DNA of 64,000 bases from Eubacteriales bacterium (lineage in GTDB: Bacteria; Bacillota; Clostridia; Oscillospirales; CAG-272). A program made the translations under genes and the position numbers. This document shows, piece by piece, positions 1-44,277 of this stretch; the stretch's first letter is position 1; the number at the start of each line of letters is the position of its first letter. Where the stretch lies: contig JAZQYP010000016.1 of NCBI GenBank assembly GCA_045633625.1, positions 6,059 through 70,058 on the forward strand, given 5' to 3'. The notes beneath the pieces were generated by a model, which made no database searches, was not told where the DNA came from, and saw only the letters and a list, made by a program, of their open reading frames with translations.

Positions 1-3000
1 ACTTGAGGTATCCTGAATTGCCACACCAAAGGTGAGGTATTTGTACTGCTTTTCACTGATGTGCGGCCACAGGCTCTTAATAAAGCTCCACTTTATAGCG
101 ACCTCGTAGGTAGTCACGTCAGTCTCGTCGTCGTGAACTACCTTACGTGCCTTTGTGGCGATATTTGCATCATAATATTCACCCGACACCATCTGACCGA
201 AGAAGTCGACCTGACAGTCCTGACACTCAAACCAATCCTCTCCCGAAACGCCGCTACCCGCAAGATTTCCGTCAAAGAAGCGGAACGCGATAGTAGAGGC
301 AATTCCCTCGGGCTCGGGAGTATTATACATACCGCCGATATAGAAGCAGAACTGATCGCCTCTCTTGAGGTTAGACGCATACGTACCAAAGGGCACGTGG
401 TCGGGATCGTATATCTCCGCCGCAAGATAAATGCACTCATCGTCGTAGTAAACGTAATAATTAGCCCACTCAACAGCCCACGTGCCGCCCGTTGATGCGT
501 TGAGAGCTCCGTATTCGCTCATATCGGTATATTTGCCGTTGTAATATTCGTAATCGCTTACAACACCGTCTATTACGGGAGCTACATCCGCTTTTTGATC
601 GATGCAGAACACCTGTTGTCCTACAGCCTCAAGAAAACGTGCGTCGATTCTGCCAAGAGTTGCGGGAAGGGGCGCGGGTGCGGGAGGGGTTACGTTCCAC
701 GCCGCATCAAGAACCTCAAGTCTATTCTTAAGACTTCTCTTGAGGAAGTCGATATTCTTGACTGAAAGCTCGTCGCCGATCTGTACGTACTTGTTGTAGT
801 AGTTCTGATTCATCGATCCGCCGATCTTGTCGGGATCGCTGTACCAACGCTCCTGATTGAGTGCCACCGACTCGTCCATCGTATCGGCAAGCTCGTCAAA
901 GCCCTCAAGGAACTCAACAACCAGAGGACGCATATAGTTCTCGTATCTATCGATAGCGAGTGCCTTGAACTCAGGCACGTTCATCATACCTCTGAAGAAT
1001 ATATTCGAGAAATACATTCTGTCGGAGACCTCGAAGTGAAGGTTGGGAACTCCCTGCCACGGTACTCCGAGCGAGTAATCGTAATCCCAGACGGGGCCGA
1101 AGGAGAGCTTTCCGTTCTCGGCAGGATTATCCGAGGTGTTAGTGAAGTACATATTGAAGGACTTGAAGTGATGATCGTCCTCGTCCATTATCTGATCGAC
1201 AAGGAGATAATCGATAAGGGAGTTGATATTGACCTCCTGCTTAAGGTAATCAACGTCGCCCGTTGCGAGTGCATCGAGAAGGTCTATCATATACTCGCGA
1301 AGCTGCTCGCGGTAGCTTATGAACTGAGCCTCGGAGACAAACGCGCTCGCCTCGGGGTACTTAAGCTCGATTATCATATAATCTTCTTCGTACTGGTCAC
1401 CCTCGTACTCGGGGATCGGGATCTTTATATAGGTAAGATCCTCGGCTGCGCCCTCATCACCTGTGCAACTCTGATCCATCGCGATGAGGAAGTTGAAGTC
1501 CTTAAGATCTACCATATCCTCGGTGATCTCGTCAAGCTCGTTTCCGACACGACCCTCATTCTCCTGTACCTGCTCGCAGAGGGTATAAAGTCCGTCAAAT
1601 CTTCCGTTGAGGTATACGTTTACCTTTATGGGAGTGGGGTTAAAGCCCATTCCGGGCATATCGTTCGCAAGTGTGAACGCCGTATAATTGTGAAGCGCCG
1701 AGGGGTCAAGATACTCGGCAAGAAGCACCCAGCTCTTTGCCTTCTCAAGACCGAAGAGCTCCTGCTTCTTATCAAATTTTATTCTGTACGGCTTCTTAGG
1801 ATAACCCATCGTAGAGTTGCCGCGAAGTCTTATGCCGCCCGTGATGTCGACAAGCTCCTCATATTCTCCGCAGTTTATAATGCTGAACACCGTTCCCTCG
1901 ACGTAGTCCTCCTTCGAGGTAATAGCCGCACCGTGTGTATCAATGGTGACTATAGGAAGCTCGTAGGTCGCGTAATCGCTGTAAACGATTATCTCTTTAT
2001 CCTCGGTTACGTTCTCAAGAGCAATAGTCGTACCCTCGTATCTCACTCCGTTGACCGTATAATGCGAGATCTTGTATCCAAGCTCTGCAGAGAAGCTCAC
2101 AGGGGACATATTGGGTGCGTGCGAGGAAAGATACTGTACTGTTTTTCCGCTGAAGCTGACCACACCCTCATCGTCCGCTTTGATGCTTACCTTATAATAA
2201 TCGTCACTTGAGCCGAAGGATATGATGTGGGGATATCCGTGTGAGGGGTAATTGTAGGGAGTGATGTGCTCCTTGATCTCATCATCGTAGCAGCCCCATA
2301 CGAATGCTCCGCCATCCTTTGCGTTTGCATAATGTGAAACGTTGATCAAAAGCTCGTCGATCATATCGCATCCAAGCGCTTCACATATAGTCTCGCGGCT
2401 GATAGCTACCTCTATGACGGTCTCCCCCGTTGCGCTATCCTTCTTTTTTGACGTACCGGCAACGTAATCGTCTATCGTGCCTGCTCCATTAAGAAGCTCA
2501 GGGCCGTCATTTGCAGGCAAGAAGAACATAATGTAATCCTCGGTGTTATCGGAGCTGACGTAGATAAACATTCCCTCCTGCCAATTGACGATATCGGTGT
2601 CATCCGTCTTCGTTGCGACGTAAATGCAGGACTCATCAGCACTCATATAGAACTCGGCACAGGTCGCATCAAGTATCTTATCGGGATTTACAAGATACGT
2701 GCCCTTGTTCTCCCCGTCAAGCTCTGCCTTAGCGCTTCTTTCGTACTCACCGTTACTTATCGTTCCGTCCATAACGGGAGCATAATTTATTACGTCAAGC
2801 TTTATTTGCTGCTGACCGTAATATCCGAGCATAAAGAGATCAAGCTGATCGGGGCTCGGCTTCCACGCGCCATCAAGAACCCTTACTCTGTTCTCAAGGC
2901 TGCGCTTGAGGAAGTCAACGTTCTTTGTCGAGAGCTCGTTTCCAACCTCAACAAACTTTGCGTAGAAGTTGGCATCCATAGCACCGCCGATCTTATCGGG

Positions 3001-6000
3001 ATCGCTGTACCAAAGCTCCTGATTGAGCGCTATCGACTCATCGATCGAGTCAGCAATATCATCATAATTTTCAATGAACTCAAGAAGTGCGGGGCGCATA
3101 TATTCGTAATATCTGTACTGCGCCATTTCCTCAAACTCGTCAATATTCATCATTCCCCAGAAGAAGATGTTGGAGAAATACATTCTGTCGGAGACCTCGA
3201 AGTGAAGGTTGGGTACTCCCTGCCACGGTACTCCGAGCGAGTAATCGTAATCCCAGACGGGACCGAAGGAAAGCTTTCCGTTCTCAGCCTCATTCTCGGA
3301 GGTGTTGGTGAAGTACATATTAAAGGACTTGAAGTGATGATCGTCCTCGTCCATTACCTGGTCAACTATGAGGTAGTCGATAAGCGACTCTATGTTAAGC
3401 TCTGCCTCAAGATATTCCTTATCTCCCTCAGCAAGCGCATCAAGAAGATCGGTCATATACTCGCGAAGCTGCTCGCGGAAGCTTATGAACTGCGCCTCGG
3501 ATACAAAGGCATCCTTCTCGGGATACTTAAGCTCGATTATCATATAATCTCTCTTAAGCGTCTCGCCGTACTCGGGGATCGGGATCTTTATGTAATGCTC
3601 ATCCTCTTTAGCTCCGGGATCGCTCGCCGTACTCAGATCCATTGCGATAAGGAAGTTGAAGTCCTTGAGATCTACCATATCTTCGGTGATCTCCTCAAGC
3701 TCGTTGCCGACTCTTCCTTCATTCTCCTGAACCTGCTCGCAAAGCGTGTAAAGTCCCTGATACTCTCCGTTGAGGTATACGTTTACCTTGTAAGGAGTGG
3801 GGTTGAAGCCCATACCCGGCATTTCGTTCGCGAGTGTGAACGCCGTGTAATTGTGAAGTGCCGAGGGGTCAAGATACTCGGCGAGGAGCACCCAGCTCTT
3901 TGCCTTCTCAAGACCGAAGAAGGACTGCTTCTTATCAAATTTTATTCTGTAGGGCTTCTTGGGATAGGACATCGTAGAGTTACCGCGAAGTCTGATGCCA
4001 CCCGTAACTGCCTCAAGCTCGCCCTCACAGTTGATAAGATCGAAGGTCATATCAACGTAATCCTCTTTGTTAAGGATGGGCGCGCCGTTGGTATCAATAT
4101 TGATTATCGGGAGCTCGTAGGTCGCGTAATCTGCGTGGAGGATTATCTCTGTATCCTCGGTGATATTCTCAAGAGCTACCGTCGAGCCCTCGTATCTTAC
4201 GCCGTTTACAGTATAATGCGAATAAACGTAGCCAAGATTTGCAGACACGGTGACAGGAGTCATCGCAGGGCTCGTTGAGAGAACGAGCTGCGACGTACTT
4301 CCGCTTACCGTAAGCGCATTCTCCATATTCGTGCTTATCTCTATGCGGTAGATCTCCGTTGAGGGATCGACCTCGGGCTCTATTCCCGTGCGCTCATACT
4401 TATAGAGCTCGTATTCATCCTTCGTGCCAAGATAGAACATATGAGGAACAGCCTTTTCGCCCTGTGCGCCAAAGAATGCCGTGCTACCGTACTCTGAGAA
4501 GAGCACGTCGTATGCCGCAGTTGCCTGCTGACCCGTCACAGCCCACTGTCTTATAGCTGTTCTGTGTCCTATGCCGTCGGGGGTCAGCTCGCTTGAGGTA
4601 TCCTGAATGTGTGCGCCGAAGGTCAAAAGCTTATACTGCTTATCGACGTCATTCCATACGTCGTCGAATGCCGACCACTTGATCGCCGCCTCGTAGGTAG
4701 TAACGCCCGTGCTGGCATTGTGCTCTGCCGAGTACGATTTTACAAAGTCACTGCCGTTATAATAGAAGTTAGGCGTCACGAGTGTGCCGAATACGTCCTT
4801 GCGGCTGTCCTGGATCTCGAAGAAGTCACCCGAAGCGCCCGCGACGTTTCCGTCAAAGAATCTGAAATCGATGGTAGAGGCTATACCCGTGGGCCAAGCC
4901 GTGTCCATAAGTCCGCCAATCGAGAAGCAGAACTGATCGCCTCTCTTGAGATTTGCCGCCCACTGACCGTAGGTAGTATGGTCTCTGTCCTTTACCTCTG
5001 CCGCAATGTAGAGGCACTCGTCATCATAGGAGATATAGTAATTTGCCCACTCGACACCCCAAGTGCCGCCTGTGGATATATTATATCCGCCGTATTCGCC
5101 CATCGTCGTCTCGACCTTAAGAGAATACTCGTTATCGCCCACTGTGCCGTTAGCAATCGGCGCCGATGCTGTGGGAGCGTCTATACAGAAAACCTTCTGT
5201 CCGAATTCCTTAAGGAAGCGCGAATCGTGCTCAGGCTCAGGCTTTGCCTCACCGCCAAGGTAAAATACGTTGTAGCCTATATTTGCATAGTTCTCGCGCG
5301 GGAAGCAGGTGGAGTTCTTGTCTCCGTAAACGGTCACGGGGATCTGTGTGTGAGTTCCGACGGGAACGGAGAGTATGATCGCTCTCACGCCAAGCACATC
5401 AAAATCCTCTATTCCCACGAACTCGCAAAGAGCATCGCGGCTTATCTTAAGCTCGATATAATTTATGTTTCTTGTATCGTCATCCCACCAAGCACGCGCC
5501 GAATCAACGACTACACTGCTTGCATTCAGCGTTGTCTTGCTCGCGCCAAGCCCCGAGTAGCCCGTCACGCTTATATTCTGCACGGGATATTCGGTGTTAT
5601 CGCTTTCCCCGTTCCTTCTTGAGAAGGTGGTGTCAAGCGTTATCTGTCTGCCTGTTACGGCACCCGGGCAAAGATCAAAGAGAACGTTAGAAGTATAGCC
5701 CGTTCTCTCGGCATACGCGAGGTATATGTAATCTGCGTCATAGCTTACGTTGATACGTGACCAGATCGTAACAGAATCATTGTGAGGGACCTCAACGTAA
5801 AGCTCGCCCTCTACCTGTGTATTTCTATCATAAGACATTGATGAGAACCAGTACTCGTCCGCACCTATAATTCCGTCTATCACGGGAGCAGGAGGATAGG
5901 TCTCGGGCTCTGTGTCAGGCTCAGGCTCGGTTTCAGGAGGAGGAGTTGCGCCTCCACCGCCGCCGCCACCGACAGCACCACCACCGCCGCCGACAGCACC

Positions 6001-6345
6001 GCCTCCGCCTATAGGCTCGGTTTCAGTTTCTGTTTCAGTCTCTGACTCGGTTTCGGTCTCTGACTCGGTTTCGGTCTCCGATTCGGTCTCAGTCTCAGAT
6101 TCGGTCTCGGTCTCCGATTCGGTCTCGGTCTCGCTCTCTGTCTCAGTTTCGGTCTCGGATTCCGTTTCACTTTCGGTTTCACTTTCCGTTTCTGTGTCAG
6201 GCTCCGATTCAGTATCCGAAACGATCGGTTCGGTGTCGCTGATTTGGGGCACGTCGGTCTCATTATCCTTTCCGATAACGGTACAGGAAACAAGGGCGAC
6301 GAAGAGCACGAGCATAAGTGCTACAAAAATACTGAATTTTTTCAT
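1..6345 (-). CDS. Giant secreted lipoprotein, partial (>2115 aa; C-terminus lies beyond position 1), with two CotH kinase-like domains and several CBM9/DOMON-like modules
   Basis: It is absent from the ORF track because it runs off the window. The minus-strand ATG at 6345-6343 is preceded by AAGGAG (rc of 6351-6356). The N-terminus MKKFSIFVALMLVLFVALVSC is a signal peptide with a lipobox. No complete minus-strand ORF is listed in this frame, so no stop occurs before position 1. My translation gives RLRGNSTMGYPKKPYRIKFD (rc 1771-1830), RLRGNSTMSYPKKPYRIKFD (rc 3934-3993) and FGPVWDYDYSLG twice (rc 1066-1101 and ~3232-3267). These are CotH-family signatures. The long + strand ORFs here are antisense shadows. 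Confidence 0.8.
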   Translation of the reverse strand, partial: MKKFSIFVALMLVLFVALVSCTVIGKDNETDVPQISDTEPIVSDTESEPDTETESETESETESETETETESETETESETETESETETESETETESETETESETETETETEPIGGGGAVGGGGGAVGGGGGGGATPPPETEPEPDTEPETYPPAPVIDGIIGADEYWFSSMSYDRNTQVEGELYVEVPHNDSVTIWSRINVSYDADYIYLAYAERTGYTSNVLFDLCPGAVTGRQITLDTTFSRRNGESDNTEYPVQNISVTGYSGLGASKTTLNASSVVVDSARAWWDDDTRNINYIELKISRDALCEFVGIEDFDVLGVRAIILSVPVGTHTQIPVTVYGDKNSTCFPRENYANIGYNVFYLGGEAKPEPEHDSRFLKEFGQKVFCIDAPTASAPIANGTVGDNEYSLKVETTMGEYGGYNISTGGTWGVEWANYYISYDDECLYIAAEVKDRDHTTYGQWAANLKRGDQFCFSIGGLMDTAWPTGIASTIDFRFFDGNVAGASGDFFEIQDSRKDVFGTLVTPNFYYNGSDFVKSYSAEHNASTGVTTYEAAIKWSAFDDVWNDVDKQYKLLTFGAHIQDTSSELTPDGIGHRTAIRQWAVTGQQATAAYDVLFSEYGSTAFFGAQGEKAVPHMFYLGTKDEYELYKYERTGIEPEVDPSTEIYRIEISTNMENALTVSGSTSQLVLSTSPAMTPVTVSANLGYVYSHYTVNGVRYEGSTVALENITEDTEIILHADYATYELPIINIDTNGAPILNKEDYVDMTFDLINCEGELEAVTGGIRLRGNSTMSYPKKPYRIKFDKKQSFFGLEKAKSWVLLAEYLDPSALHNYTAFTLANEMPGMGFNPTPYKVNVYLNGEYQGLYTLCEQVQENEGRVGNELEEITEDMVDLKDFNFLIAMDLSTASDPGAKEDEHYIKIPIPEYGETLKRDYMIIELKYPEKDAFVSEAQFISFREQLREYMTDLLDALAEGDKEYLEAELNIESLIDYLIVDQVMDEDDHHFKSFNMYFTNTSENEAENGKLSFGPVWDYDYSLGVPWQGVPNLHFEVSDRMYFSNIFFWGMMNIDEFEEMAQYRYYEYMRPALLEFIENYDDIADSIDESIALNQELWYSDPDKIGGAMDANFYAKFVEVGNELSTKNVDFLKRSLENRVRVLDGAWKPSPDQLDLFMLGYYGQQQIKLDVINYAPVMDGTISNGEYERSAKAELDGENKGTYLVNPDKILDATCAEFYMSADESCIYVATKTDDTDIVNWQEGMFIYVSSDNTEDYIMFFLPANDGPELLNGAGTIDDYVAGTSKKKDSATGETVIEVAISRETICEALGCDMIDELLINVSHYANAKDGGAFVWGCYDDEIKEHITPYNYPSHGYPHIISFGSSDDYYKVSIKADDEGVVSFSGKTVQYLSSHAPNMSPVSFSAELGYKISHYTVNGVRYEGTTIALENVTEDKEIIVYSDYATYELPIVTIDTHGAAITSKEDYVEGTVFSIINCGEYEELVDITGGIRLRGNSTMGYPKKPYRIKFDKKQELFGLEKAKSWVLLAEYLDPSALHNYTAFTLANDMPGMGFNPTPIKVNVYLNGRFDGLYTLCEQVQENEGRVGNELDEITEDMVDLKDFNFLIAMDQSCTGDEGAAEDLTYIKIPIPEYEGDQYEEDYMIIELKYPEASAFVSEAQFISYREQLREYMIDLLDALATGDVDYLKQEVNINSLIDYLLVDQIMDEDDHHFKSFNMYFTNTSDNPAENGKLSFGPVWDYDYSLGVPWQGVPNLHFEVSDRMYFSNIFFRGMMNVPEFKALAIDRYENYMRPLVVEFLEGFDELADTMDESVALNQERWYSDPDKIGGSMNQNYYNKYVQIGDELSVKNIDFLKRSLKNRLEVLDAAWNVTPPAPAPLPATLGRIDARFLEAVGQQVFCIDQKADVAPVIDGVVSDYEYYNGKYTDMSEYGALNASTGGTWAVEWANYYVYYDDECIYLAAEIYDPDHVPFGTYASNLKRGDQFCFYIGGMYNTPEPEGIASTIAFRFFDGNLAGSGVSGEDWFECQDCQVDFFGQMVSGEYYDANIATKARKVVHDDETDVTTYEVAIKWSFIKSLWPHISEKQYKYLTFGVAIQDTSS
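690..4260 (-). repeat. Intragenic duplication of the CotH-containing module (~690-2100 vs ~2860-4260, period ~2163-2166 nt)
   Basis: Long near-identical stretches match by eye. For example, cattctgtcggagacctcgaagtgaaggttggg.actccctgccacggtactccgagcgagtaatcgtaatcccagacggg occurs at 1015 and 3181. A second, weaker pair is 1-600 vs 4591-5200. Confidence 0.8.
5925..6215 (-). repeat. Low-complexity coding repeats: (T/S-E)n acidic tract followed by Gly and Pro runs
   Basis: On the + strand there are periodic ggtctc/ggtttc/gactcg units with 6/12/18-nt periodicity. They translate on the minus strand to ...TETESETESETESETETETESETE... and then GGGGAVGGGGGAVGGGGGGGATPPP. Confidence 0.85.
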
Positions 6346-31469: not shown

Positions 31470-34400
31470 TTAGTTATTTCTTCTCTTTCTTACAAACACT
31501 GTGCAAGTGCCAAGCATTGTGCAAAGAACAAGTCCAACGACCTCGGCACTACCGCCGCATCCTTTTTCCTTCTCGGTCTCGGAAGGCTCTGTCTCGCTTA
31601 CAGAGCCGCTATCCCCCTCGTCCGTCTCTGCGGGCACCGTATCGGTCTCTGTTTCGTTTTCAGTCTCGGTCTCTGTCTCTGTCTCTGTTTCGCTCTCTGT
31701 ATCTTCTATTACGGGTATTGCCTCTGTAGAGGTTGCGCCACACTCCTCGCAGGTGTATGTCTTTACACCCTCGGTGGTCGTTGTAGGCTCAAGCGTTACA
31801 ACTCCCGCGTCAAGCTTATGCGCACTCTCCTCCTTCTCACCGCACTCGCACTCTCTTACGTGCTCAAGTGCATCGTGCTCTGTCCAGTCGCCATATTCGT
31901 GCTCTTCAAGCTCATCTATAGGCTCGGTCTTGGTCTCAGCACACTTTGTGCAGATGTAGGTCTTAACGCCCTCGGTTGTATGCGTTGCCTCGGTCGTTAC
32001 CTCACCGTCATTCCACTCGTGCTCACAAGGTGCGGGAGCGGCACCACCGCCACCTACGGCACCACCGCCGCCTGCAGCACCACCGCCGCCTGCGTTACCA
32101 CCACCTGCGTTACCGCCGCCTGTGGTTTCACCAAGCTTAAGCTCGAATTCACCGGTACCCATATCCCAGTAGCTTCCCTTGGATATAGCCTCCCATTTCT
32201 CCTCGCTACCGCCAAAGCTTACAGTCTCAAGCTCGGACGCGCCGTAGAAGACCGCTTGAGCTATTTCAGTAATGCTTAAAGGAAGCTTGATCTGGGAGAG
32301 CGACTCGCAATACGCAAACGCGAGATCGTCGATGCTCTCGACACCCTCAGGAATATCTATTTGGGTGATCTCACTGCCTGCAAAGGCAAGTGCTCCGATA
32401 TTCTTTACACTGCTTGGTATCACACTACCGGATATGCACTTAACAAGGGTATTCGTGTCCTTCTCTATCAGACAGTTATTTGTCACAACGTAGCTTGCGT
32501 TCTCAGCATCTACCGTCATCGACTCAAGTGCGCCGCACGCCACGAAGGCGGTCGCATCAATATCAGTAACGCTTGCGGGGATATTCACCTCGGCAATAGA
32601 ACTTCTTGCAAAGGACATATAGCCGATAGCCGTGACTCCCTCGGGAAGGATGCTGTTCTTGCATCCGATCACTACCTCGCCGTCCTTTATCACGCAGTTA
32701 TCTGCGCTACTGTATACCGTATTTCCGGCTGCAACCGTTATTGTCTGAAGATCGCAGTCAAGGAAGGGGTTAGTTCCCATAAATGTTACGCTTGCGGGAA
32801 TAGTTATTTCGGTAAGTGCACTGCCCTGGAACGCAAGGCTGTCAATAGTCTCAAGTCCCTCGGGGAGCTCTACCGTCTCGATCTTCGCTCCGCAAAATGC
32901 GTTCTTACCAATGCTCTTTACTGTATCTGCAAGGATTACTCTCTTTATGGGGTAATTGCTCCAGAATGCGTAATCACCAACGCTTGTTACACCGTCTGCA
33001 ATCACTACCGAGCCGATATCCCCGCGGTATGCGTACCAAGGAGCGTCGTTCTCATATGTGAAGTTGGGCATATTACCCTCGCCTATAACATAGAGGGTAT
33101 TTTCAGTCTTATCAAATATCCACACAAGGCTCTCGCCGACACTTCCGTTTGCCTCAAGCTCATCAGCGCGCTGAACGTGTCCGCACTCACAGCTTCTCGA
33201 AGCAACGCCTTCACTTACCGTCCACTCACCAAAAACATGTTCGCAGGGTGCGGAGGGTCTTGCAGGAAGCTCGGGAAGTGTACCGTCATCCGCCTCGGGA
33301 GTGTAAAACTCAAGCACGTGAGGATAGCCGTATACGGGGAATCCCTGTGTCGCATGAGTGCCTGCGAGCGCGGCATTCTCAAATCCCCACGTCACAATAA
33401 CGGTGCCTTCGTTAGCAACGTGATGTATTCTCTGCGCCATAGACACGAGAAGCTTATCAAGCTCGCTGACACCAAATTTCTCAAGAAGGATACTGCGAGG
33501 AATTGCTATCTCATAGTAGGCAAGATCGGCCTTAGTGCTCGTAGAATACGCGCTCACGTATTCGGGCCAGAGTGTTCTGTCAACTCCCCCCAAAACCTCG
33601 TAAGGCGCATTATAGGGGAGATATATCTGTATGTATGAGGACGTGCTGCTCGTACCTACCTGAAGATACAGCGCATCAATGTGTCCTGTGCGGCGAGGAT
33701 CCTTCTGCTCTACCGCGAAATATACGTTATCATCATCAGCCGTCATATAGAAATATACGTGCTCGGCATCGCTGACTAACGCGGAATCACCATAAATGAA
33801 GAAATTATCGTTCGTCGCGTCATCCTCAAACTTGCACTCGACTGTGATCTCGTATTCACCGTCATCGATCTTTGCGTCAACGAGGGGGGTGTGTGCCTCC
33901 GTGAGAGTTTCGGTCTTCTGTCCGTATTCAGAAAGATCAAAGGCGTCAGAGGTGATGGGAGGAGCTACGCTGTCGGCAAGGACGACCACGTTGGGATATG
34001 CAGCTCCCGCAGGGTGCTTTGCCACACCCGCCTCGGTAAGAGTATCACTCGTGAAACCCCATACCGCATAGGAGCTATCCGAACTGTAGTGGTATCTCGG
34101 AGCCATAGTGACGAGAAGCTTATCAAGAGAATCTACGCCAAACATAGCTTTAAGCTGCTCGCGGCTGATAGACACCTCAAAGGTCATTCCCGTTACTGCT
34201 TGGTTCGCGTCCTTAGAGTAAAGGGACGAAGTATTCACATAGTAGTTAGCCACGTCAGCCTTATTAAGTCCGAGGCTGTTCGCAGGCATTTCTATTCCGC
34301 CTATCTTGACGTAATACTGAACGTATTTCGAAAGGTCGTTGCCTGCGGTGATCTGCAGATAAAGCGCCTCAACGCCTGTTGCGTTGGTGTCATCAAGAAC

Positions 34401-36164
34401 TGTGCCGAAATAAACGTTTGTCGAGTCGGAGGACATATAGTAGACCGCTCTTGTTCCGCTTTCGGCGCCCGAGAAGTCATTTCCTACAAGGAAGAAGTTA
34501 TCGTCAGTAGCATCGTTTGCGAATACTGCCTCATAAGACCACGCATACTCCCCTGCCGTTATGCTTCCGTCAACTGCAGGCATTGTTGCATTTCCGGGAA
34601 GGGTTACCGTCTGCTGACCGAGCGAAGCGTAGCTGTAAGGATCATTTACGTCAACCAAGGTCTCGGCAAGCTCGACCACGTTGGGATATGCACCCGAAAT
34701 ATGAGTGGGAACTCCTTGGGCCTTAAGAGTATCGCTTTGGAATCCCCAGACCGCATAGGAGGAACCTGAATTATAATGGTATCTCGGAGCCATAGTGACG
34801 AGAAGCTTATCAACCGAATCAACCCCAAACATTGTCTTGAGCTGCTCACGGCTGATACAGACCTCGAAATACATTCCCTTCATTACCGATCCGTCGTACT
34901 TGGTAGAAGACTTTGTGCTGACAATATAATCAGCAACCTTTGTCTTGTCAAGTCCGAGCGTATTGTCGGGCATTTCTATTCCCAAGGCAGTGTTATGTCT
35001 CTTTACGTAATACTGAACGTATTTCGAAAGGTCGTTACCCGCAGTTATCTGAAGATAGAGTGCCTCAACTCCCGTGTCGGAGGTATCGTCAAGCTCTGCC
35101 GCAAAGTATACGTTTTCCGAGTCGGAGGACATATAGTAGACTGCTCTTGTTCCGCTTTCGGCGCCCGAGAGATCCTTTCCTACAAGGAAGAAGTTATCGT
35201 CAGTAGCATCGTTTGCAAATACTGCCTCATAAGACCACGCATACTCGTTGGTATTTATTATTCCGTCAACAGCAGGCATTGTTGCATTTCCGGGAAGAGT
35301 TACCGTCTGCTGACCGTACTCGGCGTAGTCATAGGGATCATTCGTATTGGTGCTCGCTCCTGCGAAATTTACGACGTTGGGATATGCATACTGTGCATTC
35401 GGTACGGTAACCGGGATCGGAAGACCTGCGTTTACAACGTCATAGTTGTAAAAGCCCCACGTTGCAACCGCATTGCCGTTCGTGCCCGAATTGTATCTAT
35501 AGGACATTGTGACGAGAAGCTGATCGGTAGAATCGACCTCAAGCATTGACTTAAGCTGAGCGTGGCTGATCTGGATCTCTGTATGCTTTCCTATAAACTC
35601 ATTGTTACTGCCAGACTTTACACCCGTCATCTTTTCGACGTGGTAATCCTTGTTGCTATCCGTTCCAAGAGACGACAGTGTGTTGGGGTCAAGTCTCTCG
35701 ACACCATTACCCGGCTTCAAATAGTATATCACTCTCTTTGAAAGGTCGTTGGGATTTGCTATGGTCAGATAAAACAGCTCGGCATAATCCCCCGTATTAT
35801 GAGTATCCTCTATTGCCGCCGCAAAGTACACACTGCTTGAATCGGCTGACATATAATACGTCACCGCCGTTGCGTATTCCGCGTCCACGGTATCGTCACC
35901 CGTGATATATAAGCCGTTTTCTGACACGGGGTTTGTAAGATCGATCTTCTTCGACCACGCGTACTCATCTGTGTTTATCGTTCCGTCTGCCGTGGGCATC
36001 GTTTGCTTTTCGGGAACGGTTACCTCTATTTGTCCGTATGAGGAAAGCTCGTTTGGCTTCGGCGCATCGGCAGCAACCGTTCCAAGAGGAAGCAATCCAA
36101 TAAGCATCGCGATACAGAGCAGTATCGAAAATATCTTTATCATCTTTGTCTTTATCTTTTTCAT
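31470..36164 (-). CDS. Large secreted surface protein with CBM9/DOMON-like modules, BspA-type leucine-rich repeats, Cys/His modules, an acidic linker and a C-terminal membrane tail
   Basis: This is a 1564-aa ORF with signal peptide MKKIKTKMIKIFSILLCIAMLIGLLPLGTVAADA. It has at least 4 modules containing DG-I-x-x-x-EYAWS and YYMS(A/S)DS..VYFA. The LRR_5-like repeats read IADGVTSVGDYAF, VKSIGKNAF and LETIDSLAF. A Gly run (GGGNAGGGNAGGGGAAGGGG) and a TE repeat follow. The tail is GCGGSAEVVGLVLCTMLGTCTVFVRKRRNN. Confidence 0.85.
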   Translation of the reverse strand: MKKIKTKMIKIFSILLCIAMLIGLLPLGTVAADAPKPNELSSYGQIEVTVPEKQTMPTADGTINTDEYAWSKKIDLTNPVSENGLYITGDDTVDAEYATAVTYYMSADSSSVYFAAAIEDTHNTGDYAELFYLTIANPNDLSKRVIYYLKPGNGVERLDPNTLSSLGTDSNKDYHVEKMTGVKSGSNNEFIGKHTEIQISHAQLKSMLEVDSTDQLLVTMSYRYNSGTNGNAVATWGFYNYDVVNAGLPIPVTVPNAQYAYPNVVNFAGASTNTNDPYDYAEYGQQTVTLPGNATMPAVDGIINTNEYAWSYEAVFANDATDDNFFLVGKDLSGAESGTRAVYYMSSDSENVYFAAELDDTSDTGVEALYLQITAGNDLSKYVQYYVKRHNTALGIEMPDNTLGLDKTKVADYIVSTKSSTKYDGSVMKGMYFEVCISREQLKTMFGVDSVDKLLVTMAPRYHYNSGSSYAVWGFQSDTLKAQGVPTHISGAYPNVVELAETLVDVNDPYSYASLGQQTVTLPGNATMPAVDGSITAGEYAWSYEAVFANDATDDNFFLVGNDFSGAESGTRAVYYMSSDSTNVYFGTVLDDTNATGVEALYLQITAGNDLSKYVQYYVKIGGIEMPANSLGLNKADVANYYVNTSSLYSKDANQAVTGMTFEVSISREQLKAMFGVDSLDKLLVTMAPRYHYSSDSSYAVWGFTSDTLTEAGVAKHPAGAAYPNVVVLADSVAPPITSDAFDLSEYGQKTETLTEAHTPLVDAKIDDGEYEITVECKFEDDATNDNFFIYGDSALVSDAEHVYFYMTADDDNVYFAVEQKDPRRTGHIDALYLQVGTSSTSSYIQIYLPYNAPYEVLGGVDRTLWPEYVSAYSTSTKADLAYYEIAIPRSILLEKFGVSELDKLLVSMAQRIHHVANEGTVIVTWGFENAALAGTHATQGFPVYGYPHVLEFYTPEADDGTLPELPARPSAPCEHVFGEWTVSEGVASRSCECGHVQRADELEANGSVGESLVWIFDKTENTLYVIGEGNMPNFTYENDAPWYAYRGDIGSVVIADGVTSVGDYAFWSNYPIKRVILADTVKSIGKNAFCGAKIETVELPEGLETIDSLAFQGSALTEITIPASVTFMGTNPFLDCDLQTITVAAGNTVYSSADNCVIKDGEVVIGCKNSILPEGVTAIGYMSFARSSIAEVNIPASVTDIDATAFVACGALESMTVDAENASYVVTNNCLIEKDTNTLVKCISGSVIPSSVKNIGALAFAGSEITQIDIPEGVESIDDLAFAYCESLSQIKLPLSITEIAQAVFYGASELETVSFGGSEEKWEAISKGSYWDMGTGEFELKLGETTGGGNAGGGNAGGGGAAGGGGAVGGGGAAPAPCEHEWNDGEVTTEATHTTEGVKTYICTKCAETKTEPIDELEEHEYGDWTEHDALEHVRECECGEKEESAHKLDAGVVTLEPTTTTEGVKTYTCEECGATSTEAIPVIEDTESETETETETETENETETDTVPAETDEGDSGSVSETEPSETEKEKGCGGSAEVVGLVLCTMLGTCTVFVRKRRNN
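34050..35450 (-). repeat. Tandem duplication of a 696-bp (232-codon) module inside 31470..36164
   Basis: For example, ggaggacatatagtagac.gctcttgttccgctttcggcgcccgaga occurs at 34428 and again at 35124, an offset of 696 nt. The units are roughly 85-90% identical by eye. Confidence 0.8.
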
Positions 36165-36188: not shown

Positions 36189-38852
36189 TCAAGACTTCTC
36201 GGGTATTCTTATTGCGGGAGTGCTTACTGCAAAGAGTCTGTTCTCCTCGTATTTAACGTCAAGTCCTGTAACAACGTTATAAATATTCTCGTAGTCAAGG
36301 CTTCCGTCAGCAGCACAAGGAATGGTTATCGCCTCTGTATTCGCTACGCCTGCTATACCTGCAACGTAGAGATATCTTAGGGACTTAAGCTCTCTTATAA
36401 CGTAGTTGGTAACATTGTGAGGCCACTGGTTTGCCATGCTTGCATTTGCATATCCGTTATATCCTGCCGCGGTGTGAGGATAGAAGATAGCGGTAGGCTG
36501 TGCCACCTCATAGATCGCCATATCCGATCCGATATTTCCGTGGTGAGAAAGCTCTACGATATCAGACTCAAGGTAGCTTCCGTACATAGCGCAGAGATAA
36601 CGGCTGGAATAAAGCATTTCGTCGCCGAGAACAAGGAAGGTGTTTGTGACGCCGGGTGCATCCTTGTGAGTGATGTAGCATTTAATTATGGTATTGGTAT
36701 CGTTTGCATTGTCGATAGCTCTGGGGTGATGATCGCTGAAGGTCATAAGAGTCTCAACCTTTACGTTTGCGATATAGAGCTCCTGACCTGCAAATACCTT
36801 ATTGTACGTTATTCCAAAGTCATCGGTAAGAAGGCTGAGATTTTCGTCCGCCCAAATAACGTCAAATGCACCGTTAAGAACGGAGGATTTATCGGGGTAA
36901 TTAGCTATCATACGCTCAACGGTGATAAGCCCGCTGTCAAGATGATTGCGAAGGAGCTTTACGAAGCCGTATATATGGTCCGAGTGAGAGTGTGAAACGT
37001 GCCAAGCGGCAACGCGGATAGGCTCGTCTGTTGTGGGAGCGTGTCCCCAGACCTCCTCGTAAAGAGCATTGAGCGCTCTCCATACGTCATCGGGCGCACT
37101 GTAACTGTCATAACCGCCGTCCATAACGATAAAGCTTCCGTCCTCAAGAGTTATGATATAGCAGTATCCAACGTCTCTTATATCAAGAGCTACCTGAGTT
37201 ATAGAGGTCTCGGTAACCTTAACGTAATCCTGCGGCTCAAAGAGCTCGCTCTCGGGGAGGTATGCGATCTCAATAGGTGTAGATACCACGCGGAGCATAG
37301 GCTCGTAGTCAAGGTAAGGATACTTTTCGGGGTTAATGTGGAGGGAGTCGTCTCTGTTGTGTGCCTCGTCGGCGTGAGCAAAAGCATTGTATGCAACGTA
37401 GAGCATCATCTCGTCATTCGTAAGAGTTACGAACTTCGAGCCCTCTATCTCATTCTCATAATAAACAGTATATCCTGCAGCTATAAGCTCTGCCTTATAC
37501 TGCTCATATGCCTCCTCGGTAACGCCCTCACCAAGATAGAGGTGCTGGAGTGTATCCTGACCAAGGCTGAGCGAGCTTGAGAAGGCAATTCCCTCTCTCT
37601 CGGGAGACGGGAAATCTGTTATCCAATTCTCGTTTGCGGATACTATCTCGGAATATCCAACGGGGATCGCCCAATATTTATTGCCCTCGTCATCGGTATT
37701 TACCGCCATAGACATAAGGTTTCTGAGGCGCTGATAGCCCTTATCAAGTGCAAAATCATTATGCGCGGTGAGGATTATCTCGTTTGAGGTAACAAGAATA
37801 CCATACTCGTCTGCGCCAAGGATAGATCTGAAGGAGTTCTCGGTAACGTTATCCTTAACCGCACCGATAACGATAGAAAATTCTGCATCTGCATCGGCAT
37901 CGCTTCTGCGAACGGTAAAGTCGGTAGTAGCAAGCTTTGAGTAAGCAGAGAAATCAGCGGCAAGGAGGTCTGCCACCTGAACGGGATAAGAACGGCAGAT
38001 ATCGCCAACCGACGAGGTGTATGCGTGGTTCTTATCATCGTCAAGATCCTTGTCATAAACAAAGTCAACGAATGCCTCATTCTGGTCCATTACCATAAGA
38101 ACGTTGCAGTTGTATGCAATAGAGCTTTCGCTGATGCTGATAGAGGTGTTATCAAGCTCTGTTGCGAGGTATTCTGCGATAAATAATCTTACCGCGTATG
38201 CCGTCTGTGCATCATCGGAGCCCACGATAACTATCTTATCATTAATTACGTGAATAGCAAAGCCGCTACCCTCGATGCCCTCGACAGCGGCACGGGACTC
38301 GGGACGGTCTGTCTTACCGATAAGTATCTCCTTGTCGGTAAGCGAGAGATTTGCCTGCTTGTCGCAGGTAAGCTCAAGAGAGGTAAGCTCCTCTATTGCA
38401 TCGCAAAGCTCATATGCCGACGTTACGGTGATATAGCTTCTTGCGATATTGGGGTATACTATCTGATACTCCGAAAGATCAACGTCGATAAGCGTTGTAG
38501 AGGAAAGCACCTCGGGTGCCTGACCAAAGGAGGGAATGACCGCTACCTCTGTTGCAGTACAATGGATACAAGAGCGCTCCTTCAATCCGTCGGAGGAAAT
38601 TCCAGCACTTGTCACAACTCTCCAATCGGAGAATTCGTGTGCATCTGTGGTGGGTATGCTATCTTCTACCTCGGTGCCGCAAACGGTACATACGTATACC
38701 TGCGCTCCCTCGGTCTTGCAGTTTGCCTCTCTTACCGTCTCCTTAAGCACAAGCTCATGCTGCTCACAGGTATCACAGGATACAAGTGCAAACAAAAGCG
38801 CCGCTACTGTAAGAAGAAGCACGGGAAGCATAAATTTCTTTTTCATTTTCAT
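36189..38852 (-). CDS. Secreted lipoprotein with C-terminal metallo-beta-lactamase-fold domain
   Basis: The likely start is MKMKKKF at 38852, after AAGGAAA. The lipobox is LVSC. Cys/His modules follow the signal peptide. The HxHxDH motif AWHVSHSHSDHIYGF lies at rc of about 36975-37010, and ELSHHGN lies further downstream. Confidence 0.8.
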   Translation of the reverse strand: MKMKKKFMLPVLLLTVAALLFALVSCDTCEQHELVLKETVREANCKTEGAQVYVCTVCGTEVEDSIPTTDAHEFSDWRVVTSAGISSDGLKERSCIHCTATEVAVIPSFGQAPEVLSSTTLIDVDLSEYQIVYPNIARSYITVTSAYELCDAIEELTSLELTCDKQANLSLTDKEILIGKTDRPESRAAVEGIEGSGFAIHVINDKIVIVGSDDAQTAYAVRLFIAEYLATELDNTSISISESSIAYNCNVLMVMDQNEAFVDFVYDKDLDDDKNHAYTSSVGDICRSYPVQVADLLAADFSAYSKLATTDFTVRRSDADADAEFSIVIGAVKDNVTENSFRSILGADEYGILVTSNEIILTAHNDFALDKGYQRLRNLMSMAVNTDDEGNKYWAIPVGYSEIVSANENWITDFPSPEREGIAFSSSLSLGQDTLQHLYLGEGVTEEAYEQYKAELIAAGYTVYYENEIEGSKFVTLTNDEMMLYVAYNAFAHADEAHNRDDSLHINPEKYPYLDYEPMLRVVSTPIEIAYLPESELFEPQDYVKVTETSITQVALDIRDVGYCYIITLEDGSFIVMDGGYDSYSAPDDVWRALNALYEEVWGHAPTTDEPIRVAAWHVSHSHSDHIYGFVKLLRNHLDSGLITVERMIANYPDKSSVLNGAFDVIWADENLSLLTDDFGITYNKVFAGQELYIANVKVETLMTFSDHHPRAIDNANDTNTIIKCYITHKDAPGVTNTFLVLGDEMLYSSRYLCAMYGSYLESDIVELSHHGNIGSDMAIYEVAQPTAIFYPHTAAGYNGYANASMANQWPHNVTNYVIRELKSLRYLYVAGIAGVANTEAITIPCAADGSLDYENIYNVVTGLDVKYEENRLFAVSTPAIRIPEKS

Positions 38853-38886: not shown

Positions 38887-39864
38887 TTATTTTTCTTTTC
38901 TACGTACACCTAAAATTGTAGCGCTCGCAAGTGCTAAAGCCGCACATATCACCGATGCCGTACAAGACACGGTAGCACCGCAGCCGCCTTCGCTTGCGGG
39001 CTCGGTGAGGGGCTCTGTCTCGCTCTCGCTTACGCTCTCCTCGGTAGCGACCGTTTCGGTCTGCTCCTCGGGCTCACTTTCGGGCTCGGTCTCGGGCAAC
39101 ACTATCTCGGGAAGTGTCGGAAGCTCCTCGCCCTCGTTATCGGGCTTATCATAAAGCTCAAGCACGTTGGGGTAGCCGTATACGGGAAAGCCCTGCGCCA
39201 AATGCGTGGGTGCAAGCTCGTCGCTCTTAAAGCCCCACACAACGGAAACGTTGCCGATATCCTCGCTCGCGGTTATTCTTTGCGCTACGGTTACCAAAAG
39301 CTTATCAAGCTCGTCAACGCCAAACTTTTTCTCGATTATGCTTCTCGGAATAGCCAGCTCGTAATAGGTAAGATCGCCCGTATAGGATGCGGCGTATCCT
39401 GCATAATAATCCTTCCAAAGATCTCTGTTGCTCTCGGTGAGTATCTCGGGCCATCTGTGATAGGGCAGATATATCTGAATGTAGCCGTCCGTTCTTGCCC
39501 CTGCGCTTATCTGCAGATACATAGCATCGTGAAAGCTAACTCTTAAGGGGTCCTTCTGCTCTACTGCGAAATAGATGTTGTCATCATCGGCAGTGACGTA
39601 TACGATAACGTACTCTGCCTCGGTTTTTTCATAGCTGCCGTTTATAAAGAAATTATCATCGCTCTCATCCTCGTCAAGCACAAGCTTAAATGATAGCTCA
39701 TACTCCTCTTCTTCTATGTGACCGTCGATAAACGGTGTCATAGGATAGGTGAGCTTGACCGTTTTCTGTCCGTAATCGCCAAGATCATATGCTCCCGCAG
39801 ATACCGATACCGCGGCGATACACAGAAAAACGGCACAAAGGAAAAGTGTTATTATTTTCTTCAT
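38887..39864 (-). CDS. Secreted single-module CBM9/DOMON-like protein with acidic linker and C-terminal GCG-TM-basic tail
   Basis: This is a 325-aa ORF with signal peptide MKKIITLFLCAVFLCIAAVSVSA. The module is paralogous to the fourth module of 31470..36164 (shared QGFPVYGYP, DELDKLLV, DDDNIYFAVEQKDP). The tail is GGCGATVSCTASVICAALALASATILGVRRKEK. Confidence 0.8.
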   Translation of the reverse strand: MKKIITLFLCAVFLCIAAVSVSAGAYDLGDYGQKTVKLTYPMTPFIDGHIEEEEYELSFKLVLDEDESDDNFFINGSYEKTEAEYVIVYVTADDDNIYFAVEQKDPLRVSFHDAMYLQISAGARTDGYIQIYLPYHRWPEILTESNRDLWKDYYAGYAASYTGDLTYYELAIPRSIIEKKFGVDELDKLLVTVAQRITASEDIGNVSVVWGFKSDELAPTHLAQGFPVYGYPNVLELYDKPDNEGEELPTLPEIVLPETEPESEPEEQTETVATEESVSESETEPLTEPASEGGCGATVSCTASVICAALALASATILGVRRKEK

Positions 39865-40181: not shown

Positions 40182-40958
40182 ATGACAGCAAACGAAAGAC
40201 GCGAAAAAATATACGAGATACTCCAAAGAGACGGAGCCGTATCCACGGTAGACCTTTTTCAGACCTTTGACGTGTCGGGTGAGACTCTGCGCCGCGACCT
40301 TGTTGCTATGGAAGAGCAAGGCAAGCTTATCCGTGTTCACGGCGGTGCTATTATGCGCGGAGAGATAATGCCATACACTCCCCTTCAGGTGAGAAACACA
40401 GAACGCGTAAGAGAGAAAAAGGAGATCGCAAAAAAAATTGTCGAGTTTATTAGTGAAGGAGATATAATTTCACTCGATGCGGGAAGCACGTCATTATATA
40501 TTGCAGAGGCGATAAGAGATAATTTTGAAAAACTCACGGTTGTGACCTACTCTCTTGACGTTTTTAATATCCTGTGCGATAAAAACGGATTCGAAATGCT
40601 ACTCTGCGGCGGAAATTACGTTTCTGCATATCATATTTTTCTCGGTGATTTCACCGAAAAAATGCTCGATGCTCTCCACGTTCAGAAATCCTTTGTATTC
40701 CCCTCTGCCATATCTCTCGAAACCGGAATTTGCGAATATCATAGCGACACGTACACTCACCAGAGAAGAATGCTCTGTTTTGCCGATGAGACGTACGTGG
40801 TGGGCGATAGCTCGAAATTTGAGAAAAAAGCGCTTTATAAGGTGGACGATATGCGAAATGAGTATACCTACGTCACCGATAGCTCCCTCCCCGAGAGCCT
40901 GCGAAAAATATACGCGGCAAACGAAAAAAGAGTCATCGTAGCCGAGCCGATAGAATAA
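40182..40958 (+). CDS. DeoR/GlpR family transcriptional regulator
   Basis: The N-terminal DeoR HTH reads RREKIYEILQRDGAVSTVDLFQTFDVSGETLRRDLVAMEEQGKLIRVHGGA. A C-terminal sugar-phosphate-binding domain follows. Confidence 0.9.
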   Translation: MTANERREKIYEILQRDGAVSTVDLFQTFDVSGETLRRDLVAMEEQGKLIRVHGGAIMRGEIMPYTPLQVRNTERVREKKEIAKKIVEFISEGDIISLDAGSTSLYIAEAIRDNFEKLTVVTYSLDVFNILCDKNGFEMLLCGGNYVSAYHIFLGDFTEKMLDALHVQKSFVFPSAISLETGICEYHSDTYTHQRRMLCFADETYVVGDSSKFEKKALYKVDDMRNEYTYVTDSSLPESLRKIYAANEKRVIVAEPIE

Positions 40959-41223: not shown

Positions 41224-41916
41224 TTATTTTATTTTCTCAATATCCTCGTCACGTGTCTCGTCGATGTGGGCGAGCGGGAAGTCTATGCCGAGGTTTTCGT
41301 ATTTGGGTAGGCAGAGCTTGCGGAATTTAAGCAGCTCGACCTTTTTTACACACGAATGAGCATCTCTGACGGCATAAAGGCGCTCAATGCTCTCTCGCGT
41401 GTCGTTTATTCCCTTCACTATTACCTGACGAAGCCACGTGTCGATTTTTCTCCTCTGCAATTCGTCAAGAAATGCGTCAACGCTTGCCTTTTTGCACCTT
41501 GTGTATCTTTCGTAATCTGCGTCGTTCGTCATCTTGTAGTCAAGCAGACAAAGGTCTGTGACGTCAAGCAGCTTTTCGACCGAGGCATTCCAAATACAGC
41601 CCGATGTGTCAAGTGCCGTGTGTATCCCCGCTTCCCCGCAAAGTGTGAAAAGCTCACGCACAAAGTCGGCTTGCATAAGGGGCTCGCCGCCCGAAACGGT
41701 GACACCGCCGTCTTTGCCGAAATACTCGCGGTAGCGGAGGATTTTATCAAAAATCTCGCGTGGCTCGTACTCATCACCGCCACTTACGTCCCACGTGTCG
41801 GGATTATGACAGTAGGCGCATCTGAGGGGGCAACCTTGCATAAATACCACAAAACGAACGCCGGGACCGTCAACGGTCCCAAGCGTTTGTATTGAATTTA
41901 TCCTTCCCTTCATCAA
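41224..41916 (-). CDS. pflA: Pyruvate formate-lyase activating enzyme (radical SAM)
   Basis: The radical-SAM cluster motif is [15 protein letters not shown]. The ORF is 230 aa and overlaps the pflB stop. Confidence 0.95.
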
Positions 41917-44144: not shown

Positions 44145-44277
44145 AGAATTATCCTCCATTTTCCAGTCCGCCCAGACGGTCGACGTGTGACTTATTTACT
44201 ACACGGTGTTAATTCACCTGTCCGTCAGTAGTTTATAATTTATTATACTATATTCCTACAAAAAAGTCAATCGGGGA

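Follow-up and report, generated by a model that had tools for sequence, protein, structure and literature searches.

A two-cysteine C-terminal tail domain of surface proteins from largely uncultured Clostridia: a candidate sorting signal of the Cys-containing tripartite class

In the textbook view, proteins of Firmicutes are retained at the cell surface by sortases acting on LPXTG signals, as N-terminal lipoproteins or through S-layer or cell-wall-binding (CWB) domains. Published C-terminal signals of the Cys type are, to our knowledge, confined to Myxococcota, some Proteobacteria, Synergistota and Thermococcales. In such Cys-containing tripartite signals an invariant Cys abuts the transmembrane (TM) helix with no spacer, the upstream region is rich in Ser and Thr and there are many clients (Haft, 2023; bioRxiv 10.1101/2023.06.07.544157); sortase substrates typically have a spacer between motif and helix (bioRxiv 10.1101/2023.06.07.544157). 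Each of the four described Cys-type signals has been linked to a glutamic intramembrane protease of the CPBP/Rce1 type (bioRxiv 10.1101/2023.06.07.544157), and MrtX-dependent, Cys-dependent cleavage of MYXO-CTERM was shown experimentally (Guo, Haft and Wall, 2025; PMC11980579). In JDVT-CTERM, an Asp-Pro pair located nine residues after the Cys is nearly invariant, and a genome usually has a single client, beside MrtJ. Synerg-CTERM has an invariant Pro in a Leu-rich helix and is found in Synergistales only; CGP-CTERM, with Cys-Gly-Pro and a length of ~20 residues, is found in Thermococcales only. Here, we describe a C-terminal tail of two surface proteins encoded in a 64,000-nucleotide stretch of DNA (the window) from a Eubacteriales bacterium (assembly GCA_045633625.1, contig JAZQYP010000016.1, positions 6,059 to 70,058). 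The tail recurs as a modular domain in fixed register and may be a sorting signal of this class.

Among all window open reading frames (ORFs) of at least 100 amino acids (aa), just two combine G-C-G, a hydrophobic C-terminal stretch and a basic end. The features concerned are as follows, with the basis of each assignment in parentheses; LRR denotes leucine-rich repeats and HMM a hidden Markov model.

31470..36164 (−): gene for the 1564-aa surface protein (ORF translation; Pfam LRR_5, E=4.8e-45), with its stop codon at 31470-31472
31473..31562 (−): canonical Cys tail of the 1564-aa protein, GCGGSAEVVGLVLCTMLGTCTVFVRKRRNN (translation, DNA pattern, tail HMM)
31563..31712 (−): acidic T/E-rich low-complexity linker of 50 aa, directly N-terminal of this tail (translation)
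31713..32030 (−): Cys-rich repeats resembling zinc ribbons, CxHxW...TxEGxKTYxCxxCG, which separate the LRR region from the linker (translation)
38887..39864 (−): gene for the 325-aa protein (ORF translation)
38890..38988 (−): degenerate tail of the 325-aa protein, GGCGATVSCTASVICAALALASATILGVRRKEK (translation; 4.7 bits against the tail HMM)

The C-termini and coordinates given for both proteins in the original prediction agreed with the ORF translations. The 1564-aa protein (ORF 31470..36164, −) ends in ...ETEKEKGCGGSAEVVGLVLCTMLGTCTVFVRKRRNN, the same end also being given as ...SETEKEKGCGGSAEVVGLVLCTMLGTCTVFVRKRRNN, and the 325-aa protein (ORF 38887..39864, −) ends in ...ASEGGCGATVSCTASVICAALALASATILGVRRKEK. 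Both have an N-terminal Sec-type signal peptide and an acidic T/E/P-rich linker before the tail. In the 1564-aa protein the signal peptide is followed by four CBM9/DOMON-like domains (three of which start with YGQ), a BspA-type LRR_5 region, a Gly run, the zinc-ribbon-like repeats, the linker and the tail; a partial ortholog at the related locus L001 is 54% identical. The 325-aa protein consists of signal peptide, one CBM9/DOMON-like domain, acidic linker and tail, and its domain shares 52% identity with the fourth such domain of the 1564-aa protein. The ectodomain common to both proteins was tentatively assigned as a CBM9/DOMON-like β-sandwich, the assignment being tentative because the AlphaFold2 (AF2) model of the 325-aa protein is of low confidence (predicted local distance difference test score, pLDDT, 56.7). 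The best fold matches of this model were 4jpq (a putative carbohydrate-binding protein) and β-sandwiches of NxrC/EbdC-type subunits, which are presumably DOMON/CBM9-like.

Gly/Ala/Asn runs (GGGNAGGGNAGGGGAAGGGGAVGGGGAA) form linkers in the 1564-aa protein at 32073-32156 (−), and a similar GGGGAVGGGGG run is present near 5900-6000 (−) in a giant protein at the left end of the window. The zinc-ribbon-like repeat CxH...TxEGxKTYxCxxCG occurs at 31713-32030 (−), at 38600-38800 (−) in a neighbouring lipoprotein and in many metagenomic surface proteins; it has no Pfam match. Used as a query, the last 189 aa of the 1564-aa protein returned zinc-ribbon-like fragments and no Cys tails.

The tail of the 1564-aa protein is canonical: Cys1 is followed by a 20-residue TM helix, L-G-T-C with a second cysteine (Cys2) at +18, F-V and a basic cluster. 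The 325-aa tail retains G-C-G, the helix and RRK, and is without L-G-x-C at +15 to +18. Scored against the family tail HMM, the two tails gave 45.8 and 4.7 bits, respectively, so that the likeness originally proposed between them holds for the coarse architecture and G-C-G, whereas the full motif is present in the 1564-aa protein only. Six homologs of the 325-aa protein were found among 5.8 billion proteins (45-66% identity). In all six, the C-terminus consists of G-C-[GKT] followed by a helix and then a basic cluster; their linkers are not alignable, and despite this divergence G-C is conserved in all seven family members (the window protein included). Five of the six have a tail as degenerate as that of the window protein, and the remaining one, P0006 (45% identical), has a canonical tail (54.6 bits). 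Because of its low score and degenerate homologs, yet with a canonical tail in P0006, the 325-aa tail is best read as a decayed copy that keeps G-C-G, helix and basic end, and at a minimum it probably continues to function as a membrane anchor.

The tail is a homology domain of ~30 residues in fixed register, G-C-G-[GSA]-[ST]-V-x3-G-x-A-L-V-A-x-L-G-T-C-x2-F-V-x-K-K-[KR], with Cys2 exactly 18 residues downstream of Cys1. Its order is tripartite (the G-C-G-[GSA]-[ST] signature, ~20 hydrophobic residues, then K-K-[KR]) and Cys1 abuts the helix without a spacer. The register was first exposed by the tandem paralogs of locus L007, which read G-C-G-[AS]-[ST]-x11-L-G-x-C-x2-F-V-x-[KR]3, a pattern that the 1564-aa tail follows. 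The motif suggested originally had the order of G-C-G, helix and basic end right and was otherwise too loose, omitting the fixed register, Cys2 at +18 and the conserved G, A, L and F of the helix. For the conservation counts 152 tails were placed in register; no indels are present among them, and 146 of the 152 end 24-28 residues after Cys1. The conserved positions, numbered from Cys1, are:

Position −1: G, 142/152
Position 0: Cys1, 152/152
Position +1: G, 122/152
Position +4: V or I, 150/152; the hydrophobic segment begins here
Position +8: G, 127/152
Position +10: A, 142/152
Position +11: L, 133/152
Position +15: L, 148/152
Position +16: G, 149/152
Position +18: Cys, 144/152
Position +21: F, 132/152
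Position +24: K, 147/152
Position +25: K, 141/152

A DNA pattern back-translated from the full motif matched the window once, at 31482-31562 (−), where dinucleotide shuffles gave an expectation of 0.00. The same pattern matched five times in L007 and also in three metagenome contigs; the genes found in this way in L008 and L010 have other architectures, one of them encoding a 993-aa protein with a Listeria-Bacteroides repeat. In 27 distinct tail-coding DNAs, codons were identical at 52% of positions with an identical residue, compared with 38% predicted from the codon usage of the same genes. Synonymous sites of the tail are approximately three-quarters randomised and residues are ~70% identical. 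From a codon identity of 0.52 versus 0.38 expected, it follows that the residue conservation of the tail is selected and does not reflect recent gene conversion or copying; the tail peptide sequence is under purifying selection.

The distribution of the tail was established using a profile of 35 positions made from nine tails, which was scored exhaustively with HMMER against 1.84 billion cluster representatives. An exhaustive scan was needed, as a word-indexed search with the tail profile gave just seven short fragments. The profile matched 185 cluster representatives at E<=1e-3 and 69 at E<=1e-10. The sorting-signal-like tripartite architecture originally proposed from two proteins therefore recurs on 185 representatives and is always C-terminal among the 150 matches listed, all of which end no more than eight residues from the C-terminus and 144 within two. 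The shortest carrier has 46 aa and the longest 2441; signal-peptide-like N-termini are present in 103 of 152 and the remainder look like fragments. Across the family, the 29 residues preceding the tail domain contain 20% T, 18% E, 17% A and 12% P.

The tail is modular and is attached to unrelated ectodomains. An HMM of the CBM9-like domain common to both window proteins matched 43 of 108 carrier bodies. In the 65 non-matching carriers, Pfam detected LRR_5 (5), LRR_8 (4), Metallophos (4), Pur_ac_phosph_N (2) and Flg_new (2), as well as DUF4886, DUF4434, DUF4957 and PGA_cap (once each), and most carriers had no Pfam family. Fifteen complete mini-proteins of 62-126 aa, which include P0024, P0025, P0055, P0076, P0087, P0089 and P0092 (all outside the window), comprise a signal peptide (mostly of lipoprotein type), a T/E/A/P linker, the Cys tail and nothing else. 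Judged from these sequences, most of the mini-proteins would be anchored at both ends, and they offer natural minimal substrates for testing tail processing. At 439-4420 (+) of locus L011, a 1268-aa gene call with a faint RHS-repeat match overlaps a subsequent 77-aa call, in which the tail is encoded; the two calls are probably one frameshift-split gene encoding a further unrelated carrier.

Genes with the tail are often in tandem: nine scoring ORFs (ten by eye) are present in L007, four in L017, three in L015 and two each in L006, L009, L012, L013 and L014. Many carriers with signal peptides occur per genome; at least 11 tail genes lie on two contigs (L007, nine; L006, two) of one metagenome-assembled genome (MAG). 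Scanning of GTDB with the CBM9-like domain found relatives in one species representative, a MAG labelled Eubacteriales bacterium, which has a tandem array of at least ten divergent paralogs, each with the tail. The hosts are mostly uncultured and are probably spore-forming Clostridia (Eubacteriales), since SpoIIE is present in L018 and the MAG labels point to this group. No description of such a signal in Clostridia was found in the literature.

Comparison with the known systems was most instructive for MYXO-CTERM and its myxosortases MrtX, MrtC and MrtP. Both domains are tripartite and ~30-34 aa long, with many unrelated clients per genome; in both, an invariant Cys within a Gly-rich motif (GCG in the present tail, frequently GCGC in MYXO-CTERM) abuts a TM helix that contains neither charged residues nor Pro and that is followed by a basic cluster. 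The present tail differs in its hosts (Clostridia instead of Myxococcota), in a helix that is far more conserved and in Cys2, which lies 18 residues downstream at the inner helix end and not adjacent to Cys1 as in MYXO-CTERM. Its basic cluster is rich in Lys and has E-D as its last residues, no step involving a type II secretion system (T2SS) or an outer membrane is expected, and, unlike for MYXO-CTERM, no Mrt ortholog was identified for it. In common with Synerg-CTERM (paired with MrtS) and CGP-CTERM (paired with archaeomyxosortase MrtA), the tail has one invariant Cys immediately preceding the helix, upstream linkers rich in Ser and Thr, a lineage-restricted distribution and a housekeeping-type use, and CGP-CTERM also occurs in organisms without an outer membrane. 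The invariant helix Pro of the former, and the C-G-P motif and 20-aa length of the latter, are missing here. The LPXTG, SPKTG and NPXTG signals of sortases resemble the tail in position and in the order motif, helix and basic end, on signal-peptide-bearing surface proteins of Firmicutes; in contrast to these, the tail has no pentapeptide and no spacer, and its signature residue is Cys. The lipobox of lipoproteins (Lgt/Lsp) likewise places a Cys at the membrane boundary beside small residues, with lipidation as the presumed anchoring chemistry, but its geometry is the mirror image, the tail Cys being N-terminal to an N-out/C-in helix at the protein C-terminus. Lgt and Lsp would not be expected to act on the tail Cys. 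True N-terminal lipoboxes are found in the operon-partner lipoprotein (36189..38852) and in most mini-proteins. On this comparison, the closest known class is the Cys-type signals processed by CPBP 'myxosortases', which the original prediction had not named.

Both window tails, seven family tails or tail-bearing fragments and 65 full-length members were scanned against NCBIfam release 20 and Pfam, and none of them reached a curated sorting-domain model. Firmicu-CTERM (TIGR04145), which we take to be a C-terminal sorting-type domain of Firmicutes, gave no match at E<=10 with the window tails and the seven family tails or fragments, or at E<=1 with the 65 full-length members. MYXO-CTERM (TIGR03901) was rejected likewise (tails E<=10, full-length members E<=1); two models of full-length MYXO-CTERM proteins were matched weakly, at their tail ends. 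JDVT-CTERM (NF033191) does not fit, with G at +8 and L, I or V at +9 in place of Asp-Pro, and with many clients per genome; neither does Synerg-CTERM (TIGR04564), as no Pro is conserved in the helix, nor CGP-CTERM (TIGR04288), as the motif is C-G-[GSA] and the domain, with 26-28 residues after the Cys, is longer than ~20 residues. None of these three gave an HMM match. The LPXTG-type models were also rejected, with best scores of 13.8 bits for TIGR01167 (cut-off 15.9), 12.5 for PF00746 (20), 11.9 for NF033846 (23.5) and 11.9 for TIGR03068 (24.5). The sub-threshold matches to LPXTG_anchor, Gram_pos_anchor, Rumino_NPXTG and NPQTN cover the helix and basic part only, and an LPXTG-like pentapeptide is absent from both window tails. 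The tail had initially been suggested to be either Firmicu-CTERM or new; with Firmicu-CTERM and the other curated CTERM and LPXTG models excluded by HMM, the second of these alternatives holds.

We somewhat favour, and no more strongly than that, a reading in which the tail is a modular C-terminal sorting and anchoring domain, a new member in Clostridia of the Cys-containing tripartite class, processed by a CPBP/Rce1-type enzyme. The protein would be exported by Sec via its N-terminal signal peptide, and the C-terminal helix together with the KKK/RKRR stop-transfer cluster would hold it in the cytoplasmic membrane with N-out/C-in topology. Because of this predicted topology and the location of the Cys at the start of the helix, with no spacer before it, the invariant Cys1 would lie precisely at the outer boundary of the membrane. 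If it behaves like the Cys of MYXO-, Synerg-, JDVT- and CGP-CTERM, Cys1 would next receive a covalent modification, most probably a lipid. Recognition and removal of the conserved helix would fall to an intramembrane endopeptidase, for which a 'myxosortase-like' enzyme of the CPBP/Rce1 type is the most probable candidate, and the ectodomain would stay tethered to the cell surface through the modified C-terminal Cys.

A processing enzyme was sought in the window and around related tail genes. Screening of the window ORFs for motifs and TM segments, together with Pfam searches on 23 ORFs that included all multi-TM ones, detected no sortase, CPBP, rhomboid or exosortase in the 64 kb, and a motif scan detected no LPXTG or TLxTC in the remaining window ORFs; the earlier statement that the window lacks LPXTG, sortase, exosortase and rhomboid is thereby upheld. 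A 174-aa ORF with five TM segments (7643-8167) matched no family. Most flanks of the tail genes were also without CPBP, sortase, rhomboid or exosortase, and in eight tail-gene neighbourhoods (including those of P0028, P0186, P0154, P0066, P0189, P0095 and P0193) no enzyme was recurrent, except for a CPBP-tadA pair. This CPBP and tadA region lies near tail genes on two related contigs:

L016, 3510-5071 (−): CPBP and tadA region
L008, 1-594 (+): CPBP and tadA region

In L016 (a MAG contig), a 345-aa PF02517 protein with intact EExxxR, FxxxH and HxxxN is encoded upstream of tadA, 5 kb from the tail gene. In L008, tadA (79% identical to that of L016) directly adjoins the tail gene, and the remaining 29 codons of the ORF upstream resemble the C-terminus of the L016 CPBP protein, of which this fragment is, by sequence, a probable ortholog. 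The CPBP protein of L016 and L008 is a weak lead for the cognate protease. It is kept as a lead only, because approximately one CPBP gene in the ~258 kb examined compares with ~0.27 expected (3.2 paralogs per genome), a difference that is not significant, because the contigs are from related organisms and because the L016 protein is below the NCBIfam myxosortase cut-offs (MrtA, 21.9 bits versus 200; MrtJ, 19.5 versus 75).

The results of this enzyme search, namely the empty window and flanks, the CPBP count and the myxosortase scores, weigh against the favoured reading, and other points do so too. Nearly the whole helix is conserved and not one face of it, which fits an enzyme groove and a stable TM-TM partner equally well. 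Cys2, near the cytoplasmic end, is without a counterpart in the described Cys-type signals. The 325-aa family tolerates the loss of most of the helix motif, and a plain anchor may suffice there. The known bacterial Cys-type systems are diderm and T2SS-coupled (Synergistota, Myxococcota), whereas the hosts here look monoderm (SpoIIE in L018). Finally, we infer the Cys modification, the cleavage of the helix and the identity of the enzyme.

Several of these points would be accounted for if the tail were an unprocessed anchor, with the helix remaining in the membrane and its conservation reflecting a specific TM-TM interaction, in which the helix might associate with itself by way of the small-residue pattern AGxAxxAAxG or dock onto a scaffold or a partner in secretion. 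The boundary cysteines would then serve in a disulfide, S-acylation or metal binding and would not mark a cleavage site. Conservation of the whole helix, beyond a short signature, is in keeping with such an anchor, as are the absence of a processing enzyme near the tail genes examined and the persistence of the degenerate 325-aa family tails with G-C, helix and basic end only; a conserved Cys at the inner boundary is foreign to the known cleaved signals (bioRxiv 10.1101/2023.06.07.544157). We nevertheless consider an unprocessed anchor unlikely, if deserving of serious weight, as the tail matches the cleaved CTERM signals point for point: in its terminal position, in the Cys abutting the helix, in the basic end, in the Thr/Pro/Glu linkers, in its many unrelated clients per genome and in the mini-proteins. 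A CPBP protease has been found or shown for every described Cys-type tripartite signal, and ~70% identity across unrelated proteins with randomised synonymous sites would be rare for a plain anchor.

Processing by an enzyme other than CPBP (a rhomboid, an exosortase/archaeosortase-like enzyme or an uncharacterised polytopic protein) was considered improbable. The linkage chemistry could then also differ, the protein being transferred, for example, to a polymer of the wall. In favour of such an enzyme, CPBP genes are not consistently located near the tail genes, and a candidate polytopic protein of 277 aa with seven TM segments and no Pfam or NCBIfam family (L014, 7407-8240, +; identical to L015, 193-1026, +) is encoded directly upstream of two consecutive tail genes. 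This protein, however, has no homolog in the window or at the other loci, and L014 and L015 count as a single observation since they derive from one organism or from two that are nearly identical. The four known Cys-type signals, moreover, all map to CPBP enzymes. An 856-aa '14-TM' gene call in L015 was discarded as a compositionally aberrant antisense ORF.

It is very improbable that the tail is a variant sortase signal, cleaved at or near G-C-G and linked to peptidoglycan. The hosts are probably Gram-positive, and P0014 and P0018, which are relatives of the zinc-ribbon region without the Cys tail, end in VKTGD or SPKTGD sortase-type signals at the equivalent position near the C-terminus. The matches to the LPXTG, NPXTG and NPQTN anchor models, which might be taken in the same sense, are below cut-off and confined to the TM and basic part; the tail has neither an LPXTG-like pentapeptide nor the spacer between motif and helix that is typical of sortase substrates (bioRxiv 10.1101/2023.06.07.544157), and the TLxTC motif of sortases is absent from the window ORFs. 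Chance resemblance, or duplication between two paralogs with no sorting function, is regarded as refuted: the two window proteins are indeed paralogous in the CBM9-like domain, which is present in 43 of 108 carriers, but the tail extends beyond them to 185 cluster representatives with unrelated ectodomains, some with unrelated Pfam domains, shuffling predicts 0.00 pattern matches in the window and the residues are conserved by selection despite synonymous divergence.

The genomic context of the two tail genes includes the following further features of the window.

36189..38852 (−): operon-partner lipoprotein of ~887-906 aa with the signal ...FALVSC and no tail (translation)
40182..40958 (+): divergent DeoR-type regulator adjoining the operon (81% identity with its neighbouring counterpart in L001 and 64% with that in L003)
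1..6345 (−): third giant surface protein, represented by its N-terminal 2115 aa; the gene runs off the left end, and the C-terminus is outside the window

The lipoprotein gene (36189..38852) is located between the two tail genes. Its product has N-terminal zinc-ribbon-like Cys motifs and a C-terminal metallo-β-lactamase-like HSHSDH motif, and gave weak matches only, with no Pfam or NCBIfam family above cut-off. Orthologs are found at the same position in L003 (68% identity), L001 (58%) and L006 (51%), and the lipoprotein is probably a functional partner of the tail proteins. The DeoR-type neighbours in L001 and L003 both carry PF08220 and PF00455, and the arrangement of tail genes, lipoprotein and divergent DeoR-type regulator is conserved in L001, L003 and L006. 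The giant protein at the left end bears a lipoprotein signal (…LVSC), extended ETES repeats and poly-Gly runs, and contains the same CBM9/DOMON-like domain several times; plus-strand ORFs between 1036 and 6811 are probably spurious overlaps of its gene. An 818-aa lipoprotein (12660-15116, −) with tandem GxDLY and GDSL/SGNH esterase domains is encoded 16 kb from the tail-protein operon; in L001 the corresponding gene is part of the operon and separates the gene for the ~885-aa lipoprotein from that for the giant protein. At 44163-44242 (−), a riboswitch of the ZMP/ZTP class (pfl motif; 40.6 bits, gathering threshold 39) is positioned directly upstream of a 748-aa gene (41913-44159), which we take to encode pyruvate formate-lyase; the next ORF (41224-41916) presumably encodes its activase.

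Returning to processing of the tail in Clostridia, a more elaborate proposal, which we regard as speculative and rather unlikely, is a surface-anchoring pathway of monoderm Clostridia that yields 'reverse lipoproteins' with a lipid linked to the C-terminal Cys. The highly conserved two-cysteine helix would be removed within the membrane, the dedicated modifying enzyme and protease would be distinct from the described myxosortases, and Cys2 would have a mechanistic part, for example in an acyl-enzyme relay or in dual lipidation.

With this tail, the Cys-type class of C-terminal signals would extend to Clostridia. The tail provides a sharp and easily modelled 30-residue motif without indels, and a new tail HMM would name a family that Pfam and NCBIfam leave blank. 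It would mark hundreds of unannotated surface proteins of gut- and rumen-type uncultured bacteria, among them LRR adhesins, phosphoesterases and CBM9/DOMON-like putative glycan binders, as members of one sorting regulon, and the modifier and protease that would serve it can now be sought by direct tests.

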